Below, one piece after another: positions 1 to 9,921 of a DNA stretch of 14,025 nucleotides (its first letter is position 1; the number at the start of each line of letters is the position of its first letter). The DNA comes from a virus (taxonomy: Duplodnaviria > Heunggongvirae > Uroviricota > Caudoviricetes), in the IMG/VR virus record IMGVR_UViG_2600255005_000005. The stretch is one strand, 5' to 3'. Position numbers and translations under genes: made by a program. A model generated the notes under the pieces. That model was given only the letters and a program-made list of their open reading frames with translations. It did not search any database and had not been told where the DNA came from.

Positions 1-1479
1 ATGCTGGAAACCGCCTTTCAGGGCGTGAATGCGGTTATTGGCAGTATCAGCAATCTGTTCAGAGATGATGACGAACCGCCAGCGGCGGAGTATATCGCGG
101 AAGGCGCTCGGGATGTGCGTATCAACAGCCAGCCGGCGGCACGCAGCGGGGCACGCTGTACCTGTGAGGCCCGGGTGGTGAATGAGCCGGGGGACGGGGC
201 GTTTGTGTCACCGGATGTCCGCATTGGGGGGTCGTTACTGGTGGTCAGGGATATCAGAAGCGGCAGGTCGCAGATAACCCTGGTGGCAACCGTGGCGCTG
301 ATGTTTCTCCGCCCGGGCAAAATGCTTTCTAAAATCGCCTGTTTTGCTGCCGGTGTCGGGATGAGCATGATAACACAGAAGGCCATCAGCGCCCTTCCAC
401 ATCCGGTCAACGCCGCCACCGGAGCCAAATATCTGGCGGATGACGACGATTTCGACTTCAGCCTGCCGGGTCACTTTCCGCTGGACTGGCAGCGTGTGTA
501 CAGCAGTCGTGACGAGCGCACGGATGGGATGTTCGGTCAGGGCTGGAGTGTGATGTATGAAGTGAGCCTCGAGCGCACACCGGGTAACGCGGACGAAAAC
601 TGCATGACCTTTGTGTCGGGTATGGGGCGACGCCTGGATATGGAAGCCGTGCTGCCGGGGAGCGGGTTTTACAGTCCCGGTGAAGGACTGGCAGTACGGC
701 GTGGTGAGCAGGGGCACTGGCTTATCAGCAGCGATGATGGACAGTTTTTTCTGTTTGAAGCCGACCCGCATCACCCGCAGCGCCAGCGGCTGAAAATGCT
801 GGGCGACCGTAACAGCAACTGTCTGAATCTGTACCACGACGAGCTGGGGCGCATCACGCAAATCAGTGGTGAACAGCGGCGTCCGTGCATCCGTCTGCAT
901 TACGACCTGGCGGCGCATCCCCGTCGGGTGACGCAGATTTATCAGCATTTCCCTGATACTGCACCTTTACTGCTGCGTCGTTACAGTTATGACGCCGCCG
1001 GGCAGCTGACCGGCGTGTACGACAGTACCGGCCACCTGCTGCGCGAGTTTGCCTACAACGATAATCACTGCATGACCCTGCACCGCCAGCCGGGCGGCGA
1101 GGGATATTATTATCAGTGGGGCTGGTATGACGGTCCGGATGACGCAGCGTGGCGGGTGACGGGGCACCACACGGACAGCGGTGAACAGTACCGGCTGGCG
1201 TGGAACCTGGCGGCGCGCAGGCTGTGCGTGACGGACGGTCTGGGGCGCACGCGTTATCATCAGTGGGATGCGCAGAACCAGGTGACGGCGTACCGGGACG
1301 AGGCCGGGCAGGTGATGACGTTCCGCTGGAGCGACGAAGAACGGCTGCTGCTGGGGATGACCGATGCTCAGGGCGGCAGATGGCGCTATGTGTATGACCG
1401 TCAGGGGCATATCACGGAGACGCACGACCCCAGCCACACCAGTGCTATAGCGGGATATCCAGACTGCATGAGCAATTGA
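1..1479 (+). CDS. Rhs-family (YD-repeat) protein, N-terminal fragment with PAAR-like region and hydrophobic segment; truncated relative to full-length Rhs (~1400 aa); 5' end may lie outside the window
   Basis: GC-rich ORF running from the window edge. Contains the Rhs N-terminal signature (LPGHFPLDWQRVYSS...GMFGQGWSV, compare RhsA LPGPLPFILSRTYSS...GVFGPGW) and YD repeats (YDAAGQLTGVYDSTGHL, YVYDRQGHITETHDP). Upstream are a QPAAR motif and a hydrophobic stretch (ITLVATVALMFL...IACFAAGVGMSMI). The last ~13 codons look non-Rhs. Confidence 0.7.
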   Translation: MLETAFQGVNAVIGSISNLFRDDDEPPAAEYIAEGARDVRINSQPAARSGARCTCEARVVNEPGDGAFVSPDVRIGGSLLVVRDIRSGRSQITLVATVALMFLRPGKMLSKIACFAAGVGMSMITQKAISALPHPVNAATGAKYLADDDDFDFSLPGHFPLDWQRVYSSRDERTDGMFGQGWSVMYEVSLERTPGNADENCMTFVSGMGRRLDMEAVLPGSGFYSPGEGLAVRRGEQGHWLISSDDGQFFLFEADPHHPQRQRLKMLGDRNSNCLNLYHDELGRITQISGEQRRPCIRLHYDLAAHPRRVTQIYQHFPDTAPLLLRRYSYDAAGQLTGVYDSTGHLLREFAYNDNHCMTLHRQPGGEGYYYQWGWYDGPDDAAWRVTGHHTDSGEQYRLAWNLAARRLCVTDGLGRTRYHQWDAQNQVTAYRDEAGQVMTFRWSDEERLLLGMTDAQGGRWRYVYDRQGHITETHDPSHTSAIAGYPDCMSN

Positions 1480-1495
1480 TTCATCACGCAGCCGT

Positions 1496-2902
1496 TCATT
1501 CACGGTTTGCATCATTGATTTCCATCAGCATTACACTCTGATTTTTTAATTCATCGATCACTTCCTCTGGACGGGAATCCTGATCGATAAATTTCAACGC
1601 CTGCAACACCCGAACCGCATCAATCTGACGTATATCACCGCCCTGACGCAATGACTGAACAGCCAGCGCGGAGGATGAGTCAAACACCTGGGCAGATACA
1701 TCCAGTTCAGTGCGCACATCCACATTGCCACCGCAACTCTCTCCGCTCCATTCCGCCATTATCTGGAGAATATTATCGAGGGCATCTTCGAGGGAGTTCG
1801 CCATTGTATAAAGCGGCGAGTGTTCCTGCATCCGCTCTTCATTAGTCTGATCAACAGATTTGGTGGATGTATTTTCAGCCCGCAGAAGTTTAGCGCCGGC
1901 ATGACGCATCTGATTTTCCAGCTTCTCAAGTGATGTTTCGCCAGATTCTATCGCTGCGCCACTATGTTCAACATATTCGAGGCCATTTTTTGTTCTGTCC
2001 TCAAAAATCGTAGCGGTGGATGCACCAACCGTCAGTTCTTCATTCCTGTCCAGCCCGTAGGCCACCAGCAATGGAACGCGGGCAACATGAAGAATATTGT
2101 CCTGCTCGCTCTGGCTTTGCCAGTGCTTGATATTCAGCAAGCCAAGATTAAGCAATGGCGGTGTACCACGCATAAACCCTGTTTTCTTCGTATACAGTGT
2201 TACCAGAGGAATATCATCACGGCTGGTATTCCATGACTCATGAAGCATCCAGACAGATTCGCCATTAGTACCTTCGCTGCGTCGATAAATTTCTACTCGA
2301 CGGGGCATAATATGGCGGATCTGCTCCACCTTCTTCTGCCCGAAATCATCACCATCAATAATGATGACCTCTTTTATACGCAAATCAGTGAGAACAACTT
2401 TCCCTTTTTCAACTTTCGATTTCCATCCAATAACCTGGCGTGGATTCAGCATCGTAACGTACGGGCGACCACCGGCCGCGTTTTCATCGGCTTTTGTCCG
2501 AATCTCGTTCATATCCGTTCGTGGATAGTCCACCAGCGCATGTGCCACACCATACTGAAATGCGAGACTGAAAAATTGCTGCGCCCACACATCCAGTCGG
2601 CTCCCCTCCATGTCGATATTTTCTGCATATTCCCTGATTTTTTCCGGCGTTTCCTCACTCAATACTGTCGGCTCTGCAAATATTCGCCCAATATTTTGTT
2701 TGATGCTTTCTTCATACACAGGAAGTAGCGTAGCCACAGACAGGCGTTTTTTATAAGCGTCTTCATCTTCATTAGGCCATTTGGGGAGATAATTTTCCCC
2801 CTGCCTGCGCATTTCAAGCGTACCGCCCATCAGTGCGTCGTTAATATCCCACGCCTCCAGCATATCGTTATAGTCGAGGTTGGGTGTTGATATATCAGCC
2901 AT
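1496..2902 (-). CDS. putative phage portal protein (called by position immediately downstream of terL)
   Basis: 468-aa acidic protein. ATG at 2902 lies 2 nt after the terL stop (2905-2907). Gene order terS-terL-third gene is the canonical place for portal. No diagnostic motif recognised. Confidence 0.45.
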   Translation of the reverse strand: MADISTPNLDYNDMLEAWDINDALMGGTLEMRRQGENYLPKWPNEDEDAYKKRLSVATLLPVYEESIKQNIGRIFAEPTVLSEETPEKIREYAENIDMEGSRLDVWAQQFFSLAFQYGVAHALVDYPRTDMNEIRTKADENAAGGRPYVTMLNPRQVIGWKSKVEKGKVVLTDLRIKEVIIIDGDDFGQKKVEQIRHIMPRRVEIYRRSEGTNGESVWMLHESWNTSRDDIPLVTLYTKKTGFMRGTPPLLNLGLLNIKHWQSQSEQDNILHVARVPLLVAYGLDRNEELTVGASTATIFEDRTKNGLEYVEHSGAAIESGETSLEKLENQMRHAGAKLLRAENTSTKSVDQTNEERMQEHSPLYTMANSLEDALDNILQIMAEWSGESCGGNVDVRTELDVSAQVFDSSSALAVQSLRQGGDIRQIDAVRVLQALKFIDQDSRPEEVIDELKNQSVMLMEINDANRE

Positions 2903-2904
2903 AA

Positions 2905-4215
2905 TTAAATCCGAAGTGATGTGACTCTTCCGGTCGGTTTGACAATAGGGAATTGCTTAACGATGAAATAACCTCCGGCATCATTCGGGTGATCATTGCC
3001 AGATTTTTTATCAGGCTCCCCCTTATCATCCCAGACCTGTTGCTCCAGAGATTCGGCATATACCGGACAACGCTTCACATTAACTTTATAGCGACGCTCA
3101 CCATTGGCATTGCAGAACATTGCATTCATTGAGTTAACGCGATCTTTTACTGGCGGGTTCGAGCTGTTCACCACAACGTTAAAACCTGCCTGCTTAAGCT
3201 GGGCTATATCCGTCGTACTTGCGTTACTTGATTTTCTGGAATCTCCGGAAGCATCTGGATAAATATAAATCTCCCTCACTTTCCGGTAATCATGCCCGTC
3301 ATACGGCCAGAAGCGTTCTTTAATGATGCGGATCATATCCGGCGTATCGTAGGCATTGATGATTTCAGTTACCGCACATGGAAGCCCCAAACGCAGCACA
3401 TGGACGATTCCCGCCATCTTTCCAACGTTAAAATCCATCCCAATATAAATCGGCTCCCCTGGCTGCTCCACTTCTTCGCAATTATTCAGTTTCCGGTCAA
3501 ACTGATGGTAAACAGTACCACTTGTCAGGTTAGTAAACTGTCCTCGCAGATAGGCTTTAATCAGCTCTGGAGGGTATGATTCAAGAAGCGAAGGAATGTA
3601 ATCTGCTGGCAGGTTCTTTTCATTATCGAAAGTAGATGCCTGCACCAGACCATACAGTGAGGCCAGCTCTGTTTTTTCACGCACGGCTTTAACAAACTGC
3701 TCGTAGACAAATTTGAATCCTTCCGGCGTGGTTGTAACGTCAATACCGTTGCGAAGTCCATCAATCTTATAACGCATACGCGCAATTATCTTGCGCCACG
3801 CCGTTCTGGCTTTTTCCTTCGGCAAAATGTCCAGTTCATCCACCAACGCATTACCAATTTTGAAACCGACGATCGTTTGTGGCTTCTCCATCGATCTGCA
3901 GATAGTGGTTCCCCGATACTGGCGTCCGTAATAAAAGTGAACCTCTTTATTTCCCTCATTAATTTTTACGTTCAATCCCCAGTCAGCAGCAACTTCTTCC
4001 ACTGTAGGGTAAAAAATATCGCGAATTTGGGGATACGTTGGCGCAAAATATCCCTGATTTATACCTGGATGCTCCCAAATCCCCTTGCATATGCCGCCAC
4101 ACCCAACCCATGTTTTGCCCGAGCCAAAACCAGCAATATAGGCTTTAAATTTATGGGGCATTGAAAGAAATCGCGCCTGAGGCACATTAAGCGTCGGAGA
4201 GATCATCTTCATCAC
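2905..4215 (-). CDS. terminase large subunit (ATPase/nuclease)
   Basis: Walker A AGFGSGKT and Walker B-like LVDELD, with a C-terminal acidic nuclease-like region (IYIGMDFN, YIYPDASGD). Start is ambiguous among ATGs at 4215, 4212 and 4206; AAGGAG precedes them and favours 4212. Overlaps the terS 3' end. Confidence 0.85.
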   Translation of the reverse strand: MMKMISPTLNVPQARFLSMPHKFKAYIAGFGSGKTWVGCGGICKGIWEHPGINQGYFAPTYPQIRDIFYPTVEEVAADWGLNVKINEGNKEVHFYYGRQYRGTTICRSMEKPQTIVGFKIGNALVDELDILPKEKARTAWRKIIARMRYKIDGLRNGIDVTTTPEGFKFVYEQFVKAVREKTELASLYGLVQASTFDNEKNLPADYIPSLLESYPPELIKAYLRGQFTNLTSGTVYHQFDRKLNNCEEVEQPGEPIYIGMDFNVGKMAGIVHVLRLGLPCAVTEIINAYDTPDMIRIIKERFWPYDGHDYRKVREIYIYPDASGDSRKSSNASTTDIAQLKQAGFNVVVNSSNPPVKDRVNSMNAMFCNANGERRYKVNVKRCPVYAESLEQQVWDDKGEPDKKSGNDHPNDAGGYFIVKQFPIVKPTGRVTSLRI

Positions 4216-5281
4216 TCCTTACTCTGGCATCAACCACATTAATATTGATCGCCACAGGCTGGGGATGTTCATTATCTTCCACCGTTTCGATCTCTTTGCG
4301 CAGCTTCTGGTTTTCCATTCTGCGCCGTTCAATTTCCAGTTCCTGTAGCCGCTTATCTGCACATAAAGCCCCGCCAGCAGAAAGCAAACGCAACAATTCA
4401 CGCCGGGCGGCAGCCTTATCCTCCAGCAGGATCTCAACGCCGAATTTTCCGAATTTTGCCCCTGCATATAATTGCCGCGCATCCCCATCAAGCAGAGTGG
4501 TATCAGCCATATAAAGCTGTCCCGTTCCCTCACCGCAGCACTTCGGGCAGTCCGGATTGGGTATGGCGTTATCAACAAAGCCGAGGCCTCCATATTCCGG
4601 TTCGGGTTTGCCATCTCTGGAAGCCTGCGCCGCTGCCTTGTCGAATTCTGCTATATCGCGCCACTGGTAGAGATGATTCTCGCCCCAGCAATAACGGCAG
4701 TTAACACGGCGAAATTGTGCAAGCTGATTGGGGTCGGCCAGGACAATGGCCATCAACTGACTCACTAGTAAATCCAGGTCTGCGGTATAGCGTTTCTGGT
4801 ACTGATTGCGGAAGTAGCTGATAGCGCGAAAAACCCTGGCATTTCTAAGCATACGACTGGCGTTGCTGTTAGCTGTCGCACCTTGCCCCTCATAACCGGC
4901 TAGTCGGTACGCCTCTGTCGGCTTTTTACCCTGAGCAACAAGCATCGCAAACTTAGCCTGCTGGTCAGAAATGCCGAATTCATCGGGACAGAACGAAAAT
5001 TCCTCCGCGTCGCCCTCATTCAGGCCCGCATCGAATACTGGCTTTTTTTCCTGAGATTTTTCGTTCCGCTTTTGTGCAGTCTGCGTAGATTTTTTCTGCG
5101 CACTTTTTTGCGCAGTTTTGCGCATTTCTGTCTGCGCATTTTTCGGAGTTTTTTTGATGTAACGACGGGCTGTTGCGTAATTCAGTCCCCTTGCTTCACA
5201 CCATGCCACCGGAGATATACCGGAGCGGGTGTATTCAGCAATATACTCCTGCTGCAACGCCCCCCAGTCCGGTCTGCTCAT
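4187..5281 (-). CDS. terminase small subunit-like DNA-binding protein (unusually long, 364 aa)
   Basis: N-terminal HTH-like region (GISPVAWCEARGLNYATARRYIKK), a Lys/Gln-rich low-complexity linker, a terminase-small-like segment (KKPTEAYRLAGYEGQGATANSNASRMLRNARV), a Cys cluster (CRYCW...CPKCCGEG) and a C-terminal coiled-coil-like tail. Sits immediately upstream of terL with overlap. Confidence 0.6.
   Translation of the reverse strand: MSRPDWGALQQEYIAEYTRSGISPVAWCEARGLNYATARRYIKKTPKNAQTEMRKTAQKSAQKKSTQTAQKRNEKSQEKKPVFDAGLNEGDAEEFSFCPDEFGISDQQAKFAMLVAQGKKPTEAYRLAGYEGQGATANSNASRMLRNARVFRAISYFRNQYQKRYTADLDLLVSQLMAIVLADPNQLAQFRRVNCRYCWGENHLYQWRDIAEFDKAAAQASRDGKPEPEYGGLGFVDNAIPNPDCPKCCGEGTGQLYMADTTLLDGDARQLYAGAKFGKFGVEILLEDKAAARRELLRLLSAGGALCADKRLQELEIERRRMENQKLRKEIETVEDNEHPQPVAININVVDARVRSDEDDLSDA
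5073..5138. repeat. phased array of palindromic hexamers TGCGCA (4 perfect plus TGTGCA and TGCGTA), each followed by a T-tract, at ~10-14 bp spacing inside terS
   Basis: Read directly: tgtgca(5073), tgcgta(5082), tgcgca(5097), tgcgca(5109), tgcgca(5119), tgcgca(5133). Confidence 0.6.
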
Positions 5282-5284
5282 CAG

Positions 5285-5536
5285 TTAGTCCTGATTTTTA
5301 TCCACCCTGAGTAGTTCGCGCAGAGCAAAGGCATCCCCTTTTCTGGCAAGCTTAAACAATGCCGCTCGTAACTCGGCTTCACCTTTCGCTCTGCCCTTAC
5401 GGATGGCCGCATAAAAATCTGTCATTGCTTCCCGATTTTCTTTCAGTCGGTTCAGATCAACATCCAGAACGTCAGCGATTTGTTGTGCAGTCATCCGGCA
5501 CGCTGCCAGAGACTCGACTTTCGAATACGGAATCAT
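5285..5536 (-). CDS. hypothetical small protein (83 aa), possible DNA-binding helper of packaging
   Basis: ATG at 5536 preceded by GGGGTGA. Stop lies 3 nt before the terS start. Basic, helical composition. Confidence 0.45.
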   Translation of the reverse strand: MIPYSKVESLAACRMTAQQIADVLDVDLNRLKENREAMTDFYAAIRKGRAKGEAELRAALFKLARKGDAFALRELLRVDKNQD

Positions 5537-6404
5537 TTGTCACCCCCATTGATATGCAGGGTGTCTTCTTCCTGTATTTTTCGTGAAGGATTTTTACTGC
5601 AGCGTTGTTCCAGGTGACCTGATGGTGAATGCGTTTATGGCTGGCACCCATCAGTGAAATTTTTACGCACGACGGCGCATACATGACGGAGTAAAAACTT
5701 TTAACGTAGGTTCCGGAATCCAGATACAGCTCGGTCATTCCGCCGCTGTTTTTCTGCGTCTGTTTCTGCCCTAACTGGACAGCACCGATCGTCATAAACA
5801 ATTCACCACAGCGACCGAGATTCGTGTACGTATTCACATCCTCGTTAATGCGCCCCATGAATGAGAACGGTCGATCAACCGAACAGATAAAGCTGTTCAT
5901 TGCCTTGCGTTTCACCCACGAAGCATGGCCGCCATTGTCACCAAGAAAATCCCCGCCCTGCGACATAGCGATGGAAAGAGCAGGTATTGATTCGTAGTAC
6001 GCCAGCATTTCAGAAAGGATCGCATCCAGTTTCCTTATCGGAAAATAGGCCTGGTCATAGTTGCGATCCACCCGAAACTGGAACTCGTGATAATCATCAT
6101 CGAGCTGAATGAAGTATTTACACCCGACCAGTTTTGCCAAGTCGAAACAGGCATTACGGGCGTAAAAAATTGAGCGGCGGTCACAGAAATTATCGGCTTC
6201 GTCAAAACGACTGGCGATATCGGCTTTGGAAAACACCAGCACCTGTTCACCAAATTCAGCCATGTACTGATGCCGTGTCTTATCTTCATCATCAACAACG
6301 ATAAAAATTTTCCCGGTATAGCCAGCACGACGCAACGTCCGGTAAGTCAGAACTTTGTCCGGTCGCCCGTGAGTCAGAATAAAGGCGCAAAAATCATCAC
6401 GCAT
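5472..6404 (-). CDS. hypothetical protein with GT-A-fold glycosyltransferase-like motifs (soluble, ~310 aa)
   Basis: Ordered motifs FILTHGRPD, IFIVVDDED and FIQLDDDYHEF (DxD), with no hydrophobic TM segment. Preferred start is the ATG at 6404 (MRDDF), which overlaps the ParB-like stop as ATGCGTGA and is preceded by GGAGGAGGA; the longest ORF would start at 6425. Confidence 0.5.
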   Translation of the reverse strand: MRDDFCAFILTHGRPDKVLTYRTLRRAGYTGKIFIVVDDEDKTRHQYMAEFGEQVLVFSKADIASRFDEADNFCDRRSIFYARNACFDLAKLVGCKYFIQLDDDYHEFQFRVDRNYDQAYFPIRKLDAILSEMLAYYESIPALSIAMSQGGDFLGDNGGHASWVKRKAMNSFICSVDRPFSFMGRINEDVNTYTNLGRCGELFMTIGAVQLGQKQTQKNSGGMTELYLDSGTYVKSFYSVMYAPSCVKISLMGASHKRIHHQVTWNNAAVKILHEKYRKKTPCISMGVTNDSVFESRVSGSVPDDCTTNR

Positions 6405-7188
6405 ATTCCTCCTCCTCACCACCATGCATGATCTCCACCATGCGCTGCGTCATCCGGACAAATCCATTTTCAATAGCCTGCTGATAATCAATGATCACCA
6501 GCGCCGACTCCTCGAAAAAACACTGAATTTCAGCGGGGGCGTGAGCGTAATAGTCCGCAATTCTGCTGAAATTAAACACCGTGTGACGTTCTGCCGCACA
6601 CAGGAGGAATTTCTCAATATCAGGCTCAAGGGAAGCCAAACGTATCCGGCTGATCAGCTCCTGCGTTTTCGTATCGTCGTACAGTTCACTGATATCCGGT
6701 TTACCGCCCGACGGCTCATAAACAGGCGTATCAATTTTCGTCGTATACGGCTCCTCCTCATTTCCTGTACCGGGCAAAACATCCGTCAACAGTTCATCAA
6801 TTTCTGTCGGGATGAAGCCTGTCAGGGAGACATCAAAATCAGCATTGATTAGGTCCGACAGCTCCATCCGCAACAGATCTTCATCCCAGCCAGCATTCAT
6901 CGGCAGGCGATTATCTGCCAGGCGGTACGCCTTTTTCTGCTCATCCGTCAGGCCAGACAGAACAATGACCGGAACAGAATCCATTTTGAGCATTTCAGCC
7001 GCCATAACACGACCGTGACCCGCAATAATTTCGCCCTTTTCGTCAATCAGCACCGGATTAGTCCAGCCGAATTGCTTAATACTTTCTACCAGTTGTGCCA
7101 CCTGCTCAGGGCTGTGCGTCCTGGCGTTGTGCGCATACGGTGACAATTCTTGTAATGGGCGATAGACTATCTTTAATTTCTCGCTCAT
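6397..7188 (-). CDS. ParB-like nuclease domain protein
   Basis: ParB/Srx N-terminal signature (NPVLIDEKGEIIAGHGRVMAA) followed by an acidic C-terminal half. ATG at 7188 with AAGGA just upstream. Confidence 0.75.
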   Translation of the reverse strand: MSEKLKIVYRPLQELSPYAHNARTHSPEQVAQLVESIKQFGWTNPVLIDEKGEIIAGHGRVMAAEMLKMDSVPVIVLSGLTDEQKKAYRLADNRLPMNAGWDEDLLRMELSDLINADFDVSLTGFIPTEIDELLTDVLPGTGNEEEPYTTKIDTPVYEPSGGKPDISELYDDTKTQELISRIRLASLEPDIEKFLLCAAERHTVFNFSRIADYYAHAPAEIQCFFEESALVIIDYQQAIENGFVRMTQRMVEIMHGGEEEEYA

Positions 7189-7202: not shown

Positions 7203-7240
7203 TGAATAAAACGCACCCCAGCAGCCAGTGCTACTGGGGG
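7203..7240 (-). terminator. candidate intrinsic terminator downstream of trkG
   Basis: On the minus strand a ~10-bp stem hairpin (CCCCAGUAGC / GCUGCUGGGG, 4-nt loop) is followed by UGCGUUUUAUU. Confidence 0.4.
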
Positions 7241-7325: not shown

Positions 7326-8783
7326 TTAGGAGCGCCAAAAAAAACCTGAAAACAATATAATAACAGGATAAATTTCAAGGCGACCAAGAATCATAGCTAT
7401 GCACATTAAATATTTTGCAATGTCATTAAGCACTCCGAATGACGATGCAGTAGCCCCAAAACCTAATCCCATATTATTAATACATGCAGCCACTGTTGCA
7501 AATGATGTAAGAAAATCATATCCCATACCATTTAACACCAGTATAAAAAACACCGTGAAGAGAGTATAAAGAAAAAAGAAACTCCATACAGACCTCATTA
7601 CACGATCTGTAACTATCTTCCCTCCTACATTTACACTCAACAACGCTCTGGGATGAGAAAGCTGATTTATCTCGTGTTTGCTTTGTTTGAAAAGTATAAG
7701 AAATCGAAGTGACTTAATTCCACCACAAGTTGAACCTATACATCCCCCAAAGAAACTTGACAACAGCAAAAACACTATCGTGTGCGTGGGCCAGCTTGCA
7801 TAATCCTGCGTAGCTAAACCATTATCAGTGAGCATGGAGCTGGCAAGAAAAAACGAATGAATAAAACTTCCATGCAAGTCATACATACCTATATGCCAGA
7901 CCTGGAAAGAGGTAACAATGATCACCCCTAAGGCTATTAACAGAAAGAAACGAAGTTCAATATCTCTGATTAAAGGTTTTATCGTTTTCCTGCTAATAAC
8001 AATATACCAAAGAGTGAAGTTGAAAGCCGATAGCAGGGAAAAAGAACCAGCCACCAGCTCAACCAAATAGTTATTAAAATATCCGATACTCTCGCTATGA
8101 GTTGAGAAACCACCAAGCGAAACTGTGGAAATCCCGTGACAAATAGCATCAAACAAAGGCATTCCTGCAAGTCTATAACAGACAATACAAGCAATACCTA
8201 ATAAAGAATAAGTTATCCACAGTGTCCGTGACGTATCGGCCAGGCGGGGAGTGAGTTTGTCATCCTTAAATGGCCCCGGCATTTCTGACTGATAAAGCTT
8301 TGCACCACCAATACCCAATAATGGCAATACAGCAACCGCCAGAACAATAACTCCTAAACCACCTATAAAATTTAACTGTGACCGATAGTACAAATATGCC
8401 CGAGGTAATGAACTAACATCATCAATTACAGTTGCTCCTGTTGTTGTTATTCCAGAAACCCCTTCAAACAGAGCATCAATGAACGTTAAATTAAGTTCTG
8501 AGTCAATCCATAAAGGGAATGCACTAATAACAGAAAACAAAATCCAAAACATTACAATTATAATAAACCCATCACGGGTACGTAATTGAATGCCAGATTT
8601 CTTAGTTGTATACCACGCTCCGCCACCAATGCAAAAAAATATAACGAAAGTTATAAAGAAAACGAATAGGCTTTTTTCTTTATAAAACAATGCTACAACC
8701 ATTGGTGGCAACATTGAAAGACTATAGAGCCAAACCAGGAACCCACACATATGAGTAACAACTCTTACATGAGATGTATTCAT
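7326..8783 (-). CDS. trkG: TrkG-type potassium uptake protein (Trk/Ktr/HKT family membrane transporter), prophage moron
   Basis: Multi-pass membrane protein whose sequence matches what I recall of E. coli Rac-prophage TrkG (MNTSHVRVVTHMCGFLVWLYSLSMLPP...), with repeated pore-loop glycine motifs. Strongly AT-rich relative to its flanks. First ATG at 8783; an in-frame TTG at 8801 has AAGGTGG 6 nt upstream and is an alternative start. Confidence 0.9.
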   Translation of the reverse strand: MNTSHVRVVTHMCGFLVWLYSLSMLPPMVVALFYKEKSLFVFFITFVIFFCIGGGAWYTTKKSGIQLRTRDGFIIIVMFWILFSVISAFPLWIDSELNLTFIDALFEGVSGITTTGATVIDDVSSLPRAYLYYRSQLNFIGGLGVIVLAVAVLPLLGIGGAKLYQSEMPGPFKDDKLTPRLADTSRTLWITYSLLGIACIVCYRLAGMPLFDAICHGISTVSLGGFSTHSESIGYFNNYLVELVAGSFSLLSAFNFTLWYIVISRKTIKPLIRDIELRFFLLIALGVIIVTSFQVWHIGMYDLHGSFIHSFFLASSMLTDNGLATQDYASWPTHTIVFLLLSSFFGGCIGSTCGGIKSLRFLILFKQSKHEINQLSHPRALLSVNVGGKIVTDRVMRSVWSFFFLYTLFTVFFILVLNGMGYDFLTSFATVAACINNMGLGFGATASSFGVLNDIAKYLMCIAMILGRLEIYPVIILFSGFFWRS

Positions 8784-8920
8784 ATCTAAATATTCTTTCA
8801 ATTATAACCACCTTGCTGCAATATTATGATTATACTGTATAAAATTTAACTCCTCTTAGATCTTACTTCACTGTTCCTTATGAAACAATCATCAAAATGA
8901 ATCATATTGTAGTTAAGATT

Positions 8921-9385
8921 TTACTTTAAACACTGTTCGGTTATGTATTGCTGAGCACCTTCAAGTTGGGCCTGCATCATTACCAGTCGTTCCCGGAGGG
9001 TGAAATAATCCCGTTCAGCGGTGTCTGCCAGTCGGGGGGAGGCTGCATTATCCACGCCGGAGGCGGTGGTGGCTTCACGCACTGACTGACAGACTGCTTT
9101 GATGTGCAACCGACGACGACCAGCGGCAACATCATCACGCAGAGCATCATTTTCAGCTTTCGCATCAGCTAACTCCTTCGTGTATTTTGCATCGAGCGCA
9201 GCAACATCACGCTGACGCATCTGCATGTCAGTAATTGCCGCGTTCGCCAGCTTCAGTTCTCTGGCATTTTTGTCGCGCTGCTCTTTGTAGGCGGTGGCGT
9301 TATCACGGTAATGATTAACAGCCCATGACAGGCAGACGATGATGCAGATAACCAGAGCATAAATAATCGCGGCGACTCTGCTCAC
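8921..9385 (-). CDS. Rz-type i-spanin (lambda Rz-like)
   Basis: Near-identical over most of its length to lambda Rz as I recall it ([21 protein letters not shown]...[33 protein letters not shown]...). GTG start at 9385 overlaps the lysozyme TGA stop (GTGA); the longest ORF begins at a TTG at 9400. Confidence 0.85.
8980..9165 (-). CDS. Rz1-type o-spanin lipoprotein, embedded in the +1 frame of Rz
   Basis: Signal peptide plus lipobox (LPLVVVGC) and a proline-rich mature part ([24 protein letters not shown]), matching lambda Rz1. Lies entirely within Rz. Confidence 0.85.
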
Positions 9386-9921
9386 TGATCTATCCCCCAA
9401 CAGGCTAATGCGCTTTCCTGGTCACGACGAATAACCTGTCCATAGCAGTTATTTGAACGTATGCGGCAATCGCGCCCACCATCTTTTATCCACCAGCGAA
9501 TCGCCTCGCATGCACCCTTACGATCACCGGCATTCAGCCGCTTATAAAACGTCGACGGGAAACACTTACCGGGGCCAATGTTATAGGGACAAAATGACGC
9601 TATACCCGCTTTCTGTGGTTCGGTCAGTGGTACTTTAATATTGCGCTCCACCCATGCCAGCGCCTTATCACGTTCAATAGCGTTAACCTGGTCGCATTTT
9701 TCCTTCGACAGCCTCATTCCCGGTATGACGGGCTTACCATCCACCATTGTGGCACCACGACAGATGGTCCATATACCGGAACCATCGCGGTATGCCGTTG
9801 TGTGGTTACCTTCTTTTTCATCCAGAAACTGGTCGAGAATATCAGGCGCAGGCGCAGGCGCACCGACGGCAATCAGTGCCAGAACGGCAGCCGACAGGCC
9901 GTATCTGATTTTTGCGTTCAT
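9382..9921 (-). CDS. phage lysozyme (GH24-like), probably SAR-type endolysin, resembling Qin RrrQ/YdfQ
   Basis: Catalytic E-x8-D-x5-T arrangement ([18 protein letters not shown]). N-terminal weakly hydrophobic Ala/Gly-rich segment ([20 protein letters not shown]) fits a signal-arrest-release domain. Partnered with an S21-type pinholin. Confidence 0.85.

Follow-up and report, generated by a model that had tools for sequence, protein, structure and literature searches.

Why would a prophage of Escherichia coli encode a soluble glycosyltransferase, and why would the gene be coupled to that of a ParB-like protein beside the packaging genes? The question is raised by a DNA stretch of 14,025 nucleotides (nt) from a tailed virus (IMG/VR record IMGVR_UViG_2600255005_000005). 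The whole stretch is referred to here as the window. In it, a gene for a ParB-like protein of 263 amino acids (the partner) overlaps a gene for a glycosyltransferase-like protein of 310 amino acids (the transferase), close to terS, the gene of the terminase small subunit. All genes discussed in this region lie on the minus strand, and their coordinates are collected in Table 1. We find that the pairing of transferase and partner is close to obligatory, in both directions. The reading that we favour, with confidence and doubt about evenly balanced, is that the pair is a partner-dependent DNA glycosylation module, which would be made late and act before or during packaging.

By sequence profile and by predicted structure, the 310-residue protein is a soluble GT-A-type glycosyltransferase of the TAGT (TET-associated glycosyltransferase) family. 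Its match to Pfam PF20691 spans residues 8–222 and scores 122.3 bits against a cut-off of 27.5. Thus, a protein that a preliminary description of this DNA could not assign to any characterised system belongs to a named family. The three GT-A hallmarks pointed out in that description are present in the right order, with FILTHGRPD at residue 8, IFIVVDDED at residue 33 and LDDDY at residue 101, and the DxD motif is conserved along with other catalytic residues. No membrane segment is predicted, because the maximum 19-residue Kyte-Doolittle mean is 1.08, and no GtrB-type family was matched, in line with the earlier view that the enzyme is not of the GtrB type.

The AlphaFold2 (AF2) model of the transferase has a predicted template modelling (pTM) score of 0.72. 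Residues 1–150 mostly reach predicted local distance difference test (pLDDT) values above 90, and the C-terminal third is of low confidence. All fold matches of this model in the PDB are GT-A enzymes, among them SpsA, glycogenin, ColGalT1 and GalS1. The best matches in BFVD, a library of viral structures, are TAGT proteins (top match 2.3e-23, template modelling (TM) score 0.68). The model points to a GT-A fold in which the DxD metal site is kept. A profile search of PDB sequences detected no solved structure for the family. Weak armadillo-repeat matches, returned in such searches for the transferase and for the C-terminal domain of the partner, were rejected as low-complexity helical matches.

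Conservation across the family is concentrated in R14, D38–D41, D102–D104–Y105, Q149-G-G-D152, N187-E-D189, G231-TYVKS and R258/H260/H261. R14, D102–D104–Y105 and E188–D189 are invariant in 30 close relatives, as are D38/D41 and a further set towards the C terminus, and the R, DDD-Y, N and D residues are at least 90% conserved in 57 diverse relatives of 30–44% identity. These residues correspond to the R...DDD...ED(Y/F) active-site pattern published for phage DNA GT-A enzymes and JGT. TAGT relatives of the window enzyme form 1,321 clusters at 50% identity with E ≤0.001, including 493 with E ≤1e-30. Longer members of the family are fusions that join the transferase to a class I methyltransferase or a sulfotransferase, or to a second TAGT in tandem.

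To place the pair in a wider context, related loci were drawn from annotated phages, from IMG/VR (close and diverse alignments), from one genome per species and from a reverse IMG/VR search with the C-terminal domain of the partner. Collapsing transferases more than 90% identical left 193 loci. The partner gene is located directly upstream of the transferase in 162 of these and one gene away in 23; it is 1.7–3.2 kb away in two, downstream in one and fused in one, and the remaining four are cut by a contig end. Co-occurrence, on which the module proposed in the preliminary description turns, therefore holds throughout: a partner is found within 3.2 kb in all 189 assessable non-redundant loci, and in the same operon in 187. 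No partnerless locus was found among those with at least 900 nt of upstream sequence. The species-representative genomes, an independent sample, gave the same picture (77 of 77 assessable loci). Moreover, the reverse search from the C-terminal domain of the partner found a transferase next door in 80 of 80 viral loci, and a tblastn search with the linker and C-terminal domain returned 28 phage records, every one of which carries the transferase. The pair occurs in viruses of at least 12 bacterial phyla and of haloarchaea. Hosts include Veillonella, Clostridia, Bacteroides, Porphyromonas, rumen Kiritimatiellae and a Methanosphaera bin, and many of them are strict anaerobes.

The two genes are also tied at the level of translation. 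Within ATGCGTGA, the stop codon TGA of the partner gene (6399–6397) overlaps the reading frame opened by the transferase start codon ATG (6404–6402). GGAGGAGGA is positioned at 6415–6407, and its end lies 2 nt ahead of this ATG. The letters bear out the 8-nt overlap, with GGAGGAGGA upstream, that had been noted earlier. Counted from the ATG at 6404, the transferase is 310 residues long; the program-made list of open reading frames (ORFs) begins it 7 codons earlier, at 6425. In about 150 of the 162 adjacent pairs, the partner gene stops where the transferase gene starts, with the two codons overlapping or abutting, and the 8-nt overlap thus exceeds what chance would give. Conserved coupling and conserved linkage across the related loci agree with the proposal that the pair is co-translated as a unit. 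However, the two proteins are not “welded”, as the preliminary description put it: in the window the genes overlap and are not fused. One in-frame fusion of partner and transferase was found, a 522-residue protein on a viral contig (locus L135, 9272–10837), which may reflect a sequencing frameshift. Fusion as a common form was rejected, since the longer family members carry a methyltransferase, a sulfotransferase or a second TAGT instead.

The partner is built from an N-terminal ParB/Srx domain, a linker and a C-terminal domain. Its ParB_N match passes the threshold (28.9 bits against a cut-off of 26.3). In a Foldseek search its AF2 model matched Noc, ParB, KorB and PadC at about 1e-6, which supports the ParB nucleoside triphosphate (NTP)-binding fold expected from the sequence. 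The model is laid out as an NTP-binding domain, a short helical segment, an unstructured linker and a C-terminal domain, the last of which (residues 170–263) is helical and of low confidence. Among 72 non-redundant partners, conservation in the N-domain reaches at least 90% at N21, G57 and N93 and at least 70% at R60 and D92. This domain also has matches in DNA methyltransferase models, namely to their N-terminal part (PADLOC MTase_II, 2.6e-38; phrog_498, 1.2e-50). A known anti-phage defence system was considered and rejected, as PADLOC matched the ParB domain alone, via the methyltransferase model.

Residues 136–169 have pLDDT values below 50 and are predicted to be disordered. Embedded in this linker is a conserved linear motif, PYTTKIDTPVYEPS, with the pattern Y-T-x-K...P-x-Y-E-P. 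Y148, P155 and Y157 are at least 90% conserved in the same 72 partners, and T149, K151, E158 and P159 at least 70%. The C-terminal domain has no Pfam match and no sequence relative in the PDB. Partners of 130–139 residues that consist of the motif and the C-terminal domain only, and thus lack the ParB domain, occur in Vibrio jumbo phages (L006, 5459–5878) and in loci L134 (6079–6471) and L136 (5241–5633). In the latter two, the partner gene is downstream of the transferase and adjoins a beta-clamp-like gene. Because these ParB-less partners still pair with a transferase, the motif and C-terminal domain form the transferase-specific part of the protein, to which a ParB domain is often, though not always, added.

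What the partner does not resemble is a partition protein. No helix-turn-helix (HTH) or ParB C-terminal domain was found with Pfam, and the TIGR00180 score of 38.5 bits is below the cut-off of 58.45. No parA gene is annotated in the intact prophage of E. coli strain Yu5, which carries the same region. With no HTH, no ParA nearby and an acidic isoelectric point (pI) of 4.49, the partner is not a partition-type ParB. The term nuclease in “ParB-like nuclease” is a historical domain name, and profile searches matched the partner to no nuclease family. Of the DNA-binding nuclease described earlier, the ParB NTP-binding fold is retained; with no HTH detected, an acidic pI and no sign of nuclease activity, the rest is left unsupported.

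The neighbourhood of the pair is informative in two respects. The usual downstream neighbours are the terminase small and large subunits and the portal protein. These terminases come from unrelated families (Terminase_6N, Terminase_3 and GpA), and no specific structural protein recurs beside the pair. Where the pair is located away from the terminase, its neighbours are genes of replication. In a Vibrio jumbo phage they encode exonuclease, primase and helicase, and in L134 the neighbour is the beta-clamp-like gene. In addition, genes for sugar activation are found with it. A fusion of a His-phosphatase with a TagD-like cytidylyltransferase is inserted between partner and transferase at 14 loci, L110 (2145–3098) and 13 similar ones. 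The best PDB relatives of the second half of this L110-type fusion are glycerol-3-phosphate and ethanolamine-phosphate cytidylyltransferases, which hints at a donor activated with cytidine diphosphate (CDP) in this subclade. An NAD epimerase/dehydratase is present in or beside the pair at six loci and a second TAGT at some. Such sugar-activating neighbours, together with the transferase fusions, are the signature of a real glycosylation pathway. In phage phi jlb1, a 1.4-kb stretch devoid of annotated genes immediately precedes the partner gene (L089, 11351–12745) and could hold a packaging site or a late promoter.

In the mechanism that we propose, the two proteins would be expressed as a module within the late, packaging-side operon of the phage. 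The TAGT protein would be an active nucleotide-sugar transferase with a metal-binding DxD motif that works only together with the upstream partner. The partner, judging from ParB precedents, would hold the transferase on duplex phage DNA or load it there. Sugars would then be put on the phage DNA after replication, before or in the course of packaging, where they would most likely blunt host nucleases. We infer all three elements of this picture: DNA as the target, the partner as the loader, and the biological role.

Precedents exist for such an arrangement. A phage thymine dioxygenase requires its cognate ParB protein, and does so specifically when the DNA is double-stranded (PMC13229309); ParB domains fused to DNA methyltransferases are common in phages and enriched in prophages (PMC12704722); and in T4, the alpha-glucosyltransferase attaches to the sliding clamp, gp45. 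The module can be dispensed with: several Lactobacillus delbrueckii phages have it in split or decayed form, and E. coli K-12 keeps an 87-residue ynaK stump. A counter-defence role therefore suits it better than a core role in packaging. The DNA-directed activity suggested in the preliminary description fits the family, but a DNA target can be proposed only conditionally, as the enzyme that usually makes the acceptor is absent.

That absence is one of several points that weigh against DNA glycosylation. The main weakness is the matter of the acceptor, and in canonical DNA there is no obvious one for an O-glycosyltransferase. Characterised TAGT-type members glycosylate hydroxymethyl-pyrimidines, or glucose already present on them, in DNA (PMC13216743; bioRxiv 10.1101/2023.12.21.572611). 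The hydroxyl that they require normally comes from a TET/JBP-type dioxygenase, a nucleotide hydroxymethylase or a primary glucosyltransferase. An acceptor-making enzyme is annotated neither in the intact Rac-type prophage nor in the complete genomes of Lactobacillus phage c5 (31.8 kb) and phi jlb1 (38 kb). Among the mid-sized neighbours at about 106 diverse loci, there is no recurrent dioxygenase, thymidylate-synthase homologue or cytosine methyltransferase; these bulk Pfam scans show the 25 commonest families, so that a regular companion is excluded and an isolated case could escape. For this reason, the larger ORFs of unannotated function in c5 and phi jlb1 were scanned one by one, and none gave a significant Pfam match. 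Furthermore, the partner itself is acidic and has no recognisable DNA-binding domain. In 23 of the 193 loci the partner lacks the ParB N-domain or another gene splits the pair, and DNA loading via ParB is thus not the whole story. Finally, the prophage in the window is truncated after the portal gene, so that this host may never express the pair.

The host range adds a constraint of its own. Fe(II)/2-oxoglutarate dioxygenases require molecular oxygen, and hence such an enzyme is unable to supply the acceptor in strict anaerobes. The chemical acceptor cannot be a TET-made hydroxymethyl base. As a tentative extension, which we hold with clearly less confidence than DNA glycosylation as such, the glycan might be added without prior hydroxymethylation or oxygen. 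It would be placed either on a canonical base or the backbone, or on the Tyr/Thr motif of the partner, which would then be a DNA-acting glycoprotein.

A protein acceptor also has to be considered in its own right, and we regard it as a serious, though less likely, alternative. The sugar could be transferred to Tyr or Thr in the linker of the partner, as in the self-priming of glycogenin, or to a virion or host protein for which the partner serves as substrate or adaptor. The most conserved feature of the partner outside its domains is indeed a motif with two near-invariant Tyr and a Thr, placed where pLDDT is below 50, and this motif with the C-terminal domain suffices for pairing in the ParB-less partners. 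Such a conserved linear motif is, however, equally explicable as a docking peptide. The fold matches of the transferase include the self-glucosylating GT-A enzyme glycogenin, and GREB1, a relative in the family, is reported to be a protein O-GlcNAc transferase (PMC7968844), which also counts against a DNA target. No enzyme that makes a DNA acceptor was found, as would be expected if the acceptor were a protein. On the other hand, the characterised phage and kinetoplastid members of the family all act on DNA, and most partners have a ParB N-domain that matches its counterpart in DNA methyltransferase models. Moreover, the genes around the pair serve packaging or replication, and no specific structural protein is recurrent among them.

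Two further explanations take their cue from position and from precedent among prophages. If the ParB-like protein recognised DNA near cos or pac and assisted the terminase, the transferase-like protein might be structural or regulatory. The pair is located directly upstream of terS/terL in phages of Proteobacteria, Firmicutes, Actinobacteria and Bacteroidetes, it forms the first genes past the cos site in Lactobacillus phage c5, and the annotation of Nocardia phage NTR1 shows no separate terS to part the pair from terL. We nevertheless consider a packaging accessory improbable: the catalytic residues are conserved family-wide, the accompanying terminases are of unrelated families, the pair also occurs far from terminases among replication genes, it is split or lost in viable Lactobacillus phages, and sugar-nucleotide genes are inserted within its operon. 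Lysogenic conversion, in which the enzyme would alter a polymer of the host surface (O-antigen or teichoic acid, for instance) in the manner of GtrB or TarP, appears to us more improbable still. Prophage GT-A enzymes such as TarP do act in this way, TarP is a structural neighbour of phage GT-A enzymes, and the TagD-like cytidylyltransferase accompanies the pair at 14 loci. However, the transferase has no predicted membrane segment, and neither a flippase nor gtr genes appear in the prophage annotation. The pair is part of a late operon, downstream of the lysis genes, and is also carried by c5 (a complete genome with no annotated integrase), by lytic jumbo phages and by a haloarchaeal virus. 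The strict tie to a ParB-type protein, in turn, has no place in surface-glycan pathways.

When comparing the pair with characterised systems, the close parallels to the transferase include enzymes that glycosylate DNA. The T2/T6 beta-glucosyl-HMC-alpha-glucosyltransferase (HMC, hydroxymethylcytosine) is, like the window enzyme, a soluble phage enzyme of PF20691 with a GT-A fold. Unlike the window enzyme, it adds a second glucose to glucosyl-hydroxymethylcytosine made before replication, works in concert with an alpha- or beta-glucosyltransferase (GT) and has no ParB partner, whereas the window prophage, judged from the annotation of its intact counterpart, has no hydroxymethylase and no alpha- or beta-GT. 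Sequence relatedness to the T-even enzyme is remote, as only proteins of T4-like Aeromonas phages were detected, at 22–24% identity. The GT-A DNA glycosyltransferases from metaviromes, which act on 5-hydroxymethylcytosine (5hmC), and kinetoplastid JGT share the GT-A fold and the R...DDD...ED(Y/F) pattern, JGT being compared by its published pattern. They act on DNA after replication, and are often encoded near ParB and terminase genes. In contrast to the window enzyme, they rely on a 5-methylpyrimidine dioxygenase encoded nearby (plus a C5-methyltransferase) or on JBP.

For the partner, a close parallel is ParB176, an activator of the phage thymine dioxygenase 5mYOX176 (PMC13229309). By its description, ParB176 likewise consists of an NTP-binding domain, an unstructured linker and a C-terminal domain without a DNA-binding domain, and it is encoded beside the DNA-modifying enzyme that it specifically serves. 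Its client is a dioxygenase, whereas the neighbour of the window partner is a glycosyltransferase at every locus examined, with no cognate 5-methylpyrimidine dioxygenase alongside. The ParB–DNA methyltransferase fusions share the N-domain of the partner. In those fusions, the enzyme part uses S-adenosylmethionine (SAM) and takes canonical bases as its target; the window enzyme, in contrast, is a separate, translationally coupled glycosyltransferase, fused in L135 only.

Two names could mislead. The Prokaryotic Genome Annotation Pipeline (PGAP) label “GREB1-related” arises because the C-terminal glycosyltransferase domain of animal GREB1 belongs to the same superfamily. Unlike the window enzyme, GREB1 is a cytoplasmic animal protein of 1949 residues, reported to O-GlcNAcylate a transcription factor, with neither a ParB partner nor a phage context. 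GtrB-type bactoprenol glucosyltransferases are membrane-anchored GT2 enzymes that act with GtrA and GtrC; the window enzyme differs in having no hydrophobic segment, in its Pfam family and in the absence of annotated gtr genes.

The co-occurrence of ParB genes with phage DNA-modification clusters has been noted before (Iyer et al. 2013, as cited in later papers). Of the 753 phage genomes with a transferase in a 2026 survey, 288 had solitary TAGT homologues, to which the survey assigned no function. In an earlier study, about 65% of the viral contigs with a transferase were left out of consideration for want of a dioxygenase or thymidylate-synthase homologue. The transferase family is thus already known. 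The clade seen here, with its strict two-way pairing, dedicated partner domain, lack of a dioxygenase, wide distribution among anaerobes and own sugar-supply genes, is not described in the literature that we consulted.

The window belongs to a lambdoid prophage of the Rac type in E. coli. The region discussed here is 100% identical to that of strain Yu5 and present in 1,580 of 5,426 complete E. coli genomes, 867 of which (~16% of all) contain 80% or more of it. The gene order of the intact prophage in Yu5 (locus L001) is lysis genes, trkG, the ParB-like gene, the “GREB1-related protein”, a small ORF, terS, terL, portal, and head and tail genes. The placement of the pair between the lysis cassette and terS in the preliminary description is accurate on the terS side; on the lysis side, trkG and the hairpin at 7216–7239 intervene. 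The trkG gene is a low-GC insert (37.7% guanine plus cytosine, against 47.7% for the window). Ahead of the pair, nothing promoter-like rises above chance level. Among the lysis genes, the Rz gene (8921–9400, minus strand) contains an embedded Rz1-like lipoprotein ORF in another frame (8980–9165, minus strand), the usual spanin arrangement.

Table 1. Features of the window around the partner–transferase pair.
Feature	Coordinates	Strand	Basis or remark
Portal	1496-2902	-	Part of 1496..5281; agrees with annotation of the intact prophage (L001)
terL	2905-4215	-	Pfam Terminase_6N, Terminase_6C; agrees with annotation of L001
terS	4187-5281	-	Pfam Terminase_2; agrees with annotation of L001
Small basic ORF, 83 residues (69 in PGAP, start 5494)	5285..5536	-	phrog_309 (terminase small subunit) 8.3e-23; pI 9.25
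Predicted TAGT-family GT-A glycosyltransferase, 310 residues	5472..6404	-	Pfam PF20691 3.4e-35; phrog_842 6.3e-104; PGAP “GREB1-related protein”
Coupling junction: GGAGGAGGA, then AT, then ATGCGTGA	6397..6415	-	Letters read directly; 8-nt start/stop overlap
Partner, full-length YnaK-type ParB/Srx protein, 263 residues, pI 4.49	6397..7188	-	Pfam ParB_N; phrog_620, residues 1-250, 6.5e-90
Partner C-terminal domain, residues 170-263	6400..6681	-	Specific to transferase-linked partners
Conserved linear motif PYTTKIDTPVYEPS, residues 147-160, in disordered linker	6709..6750	-	Conservation and pLDDT
ParB/Srx NTP-binding N-domain, residues 1-135, GHGR box II at residues 57-60	6784..7188	-	Confident part of AF2 model
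Strong terminator-like hairpin, 10-bp stem	7216-7239		After trkG, just upstream of the ParB-like gene
trkG	7326-8801	-	Between lysis genes and ParB-like gene

The small ORF between transferase and terS is probably a packaging accessory outside the ParB–transferase pair. It encodes, as described earlier, a basic protein and abuts terS, ending 4 nt from the terS start at 5281, and it is kept beside terS in enterobacterial relatives only. Homologues of 85 residues agree with the 83-residue start and not with the 69-residue start of PGAP. The last 21–25 or so residues of the E. coli transferase (5472–5536) are poorly conserved, of low confidence in the model, and overlap this ORF in a different frame. 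Relatives of the transferase in Salmonella, Klebsiella and others are 285–290 residues long and end just ahead of the next small ORF.

At the other end of the packaging genes, an RHS-repeat core fragment (window 1–1479, plus strand), about 93% identical to E. coli RHS genes over 1–1430, adjoins the portal end near 1480–1496. Because this RHS-family fragment cuts in directly after the portal gene, the head and tail genes are missing and the prophage of the window is defective. The RHS/portal junction is spanned by none of the six complete E. coli genomes among the best matches listed. The pair itself is intact in the window, and its sequence is identical to that in complete prophages.

Reduced or mislabelled versions of the two genes are found elsewhere. 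In the L. delbrueckii phages phiLdb, Ld17, LL-Ku and Ld25A, the transferase is split in two or reduced to a fragment and the ParB-like gene is still annotated, which suggests that the transferase is dispensable under dairy conditions. The ynaK gene of E. coli K-12 (locus L247, 2878–3141) is the 87-residue stump of this partner gene; deletion has removed the transferase gene and the packaging genes from this strain. In Yu5 (L001, 21113–21904), PGAP takes the intact 263-residue gene for a partial ynaK pseudogene, and about 530 bp receive no annotation, an error that probably stems from the ynaK name.

The pair gives the puzzle of the solitary TAGT homologues a concrete and tractable form, namely two genes that include a dedicated partner. 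If glycosylation takes place here without hydroxymethylation, or on a phage glycoprotein, it would be a kind of phage modification so far undescribed, and would account both for the solitary TAGT genes and for the transferase contigs that lack a dioxygenase or thymidylate synthase. Were the partner protein the target, the pair would constitute a new phage glycoprotein system. Were it DNA, phages would possess a modification route free of oxygen and of a hydroxymethyl precursor, with a bearing on restriction evasion, sequencing artefacts and phage engineering.

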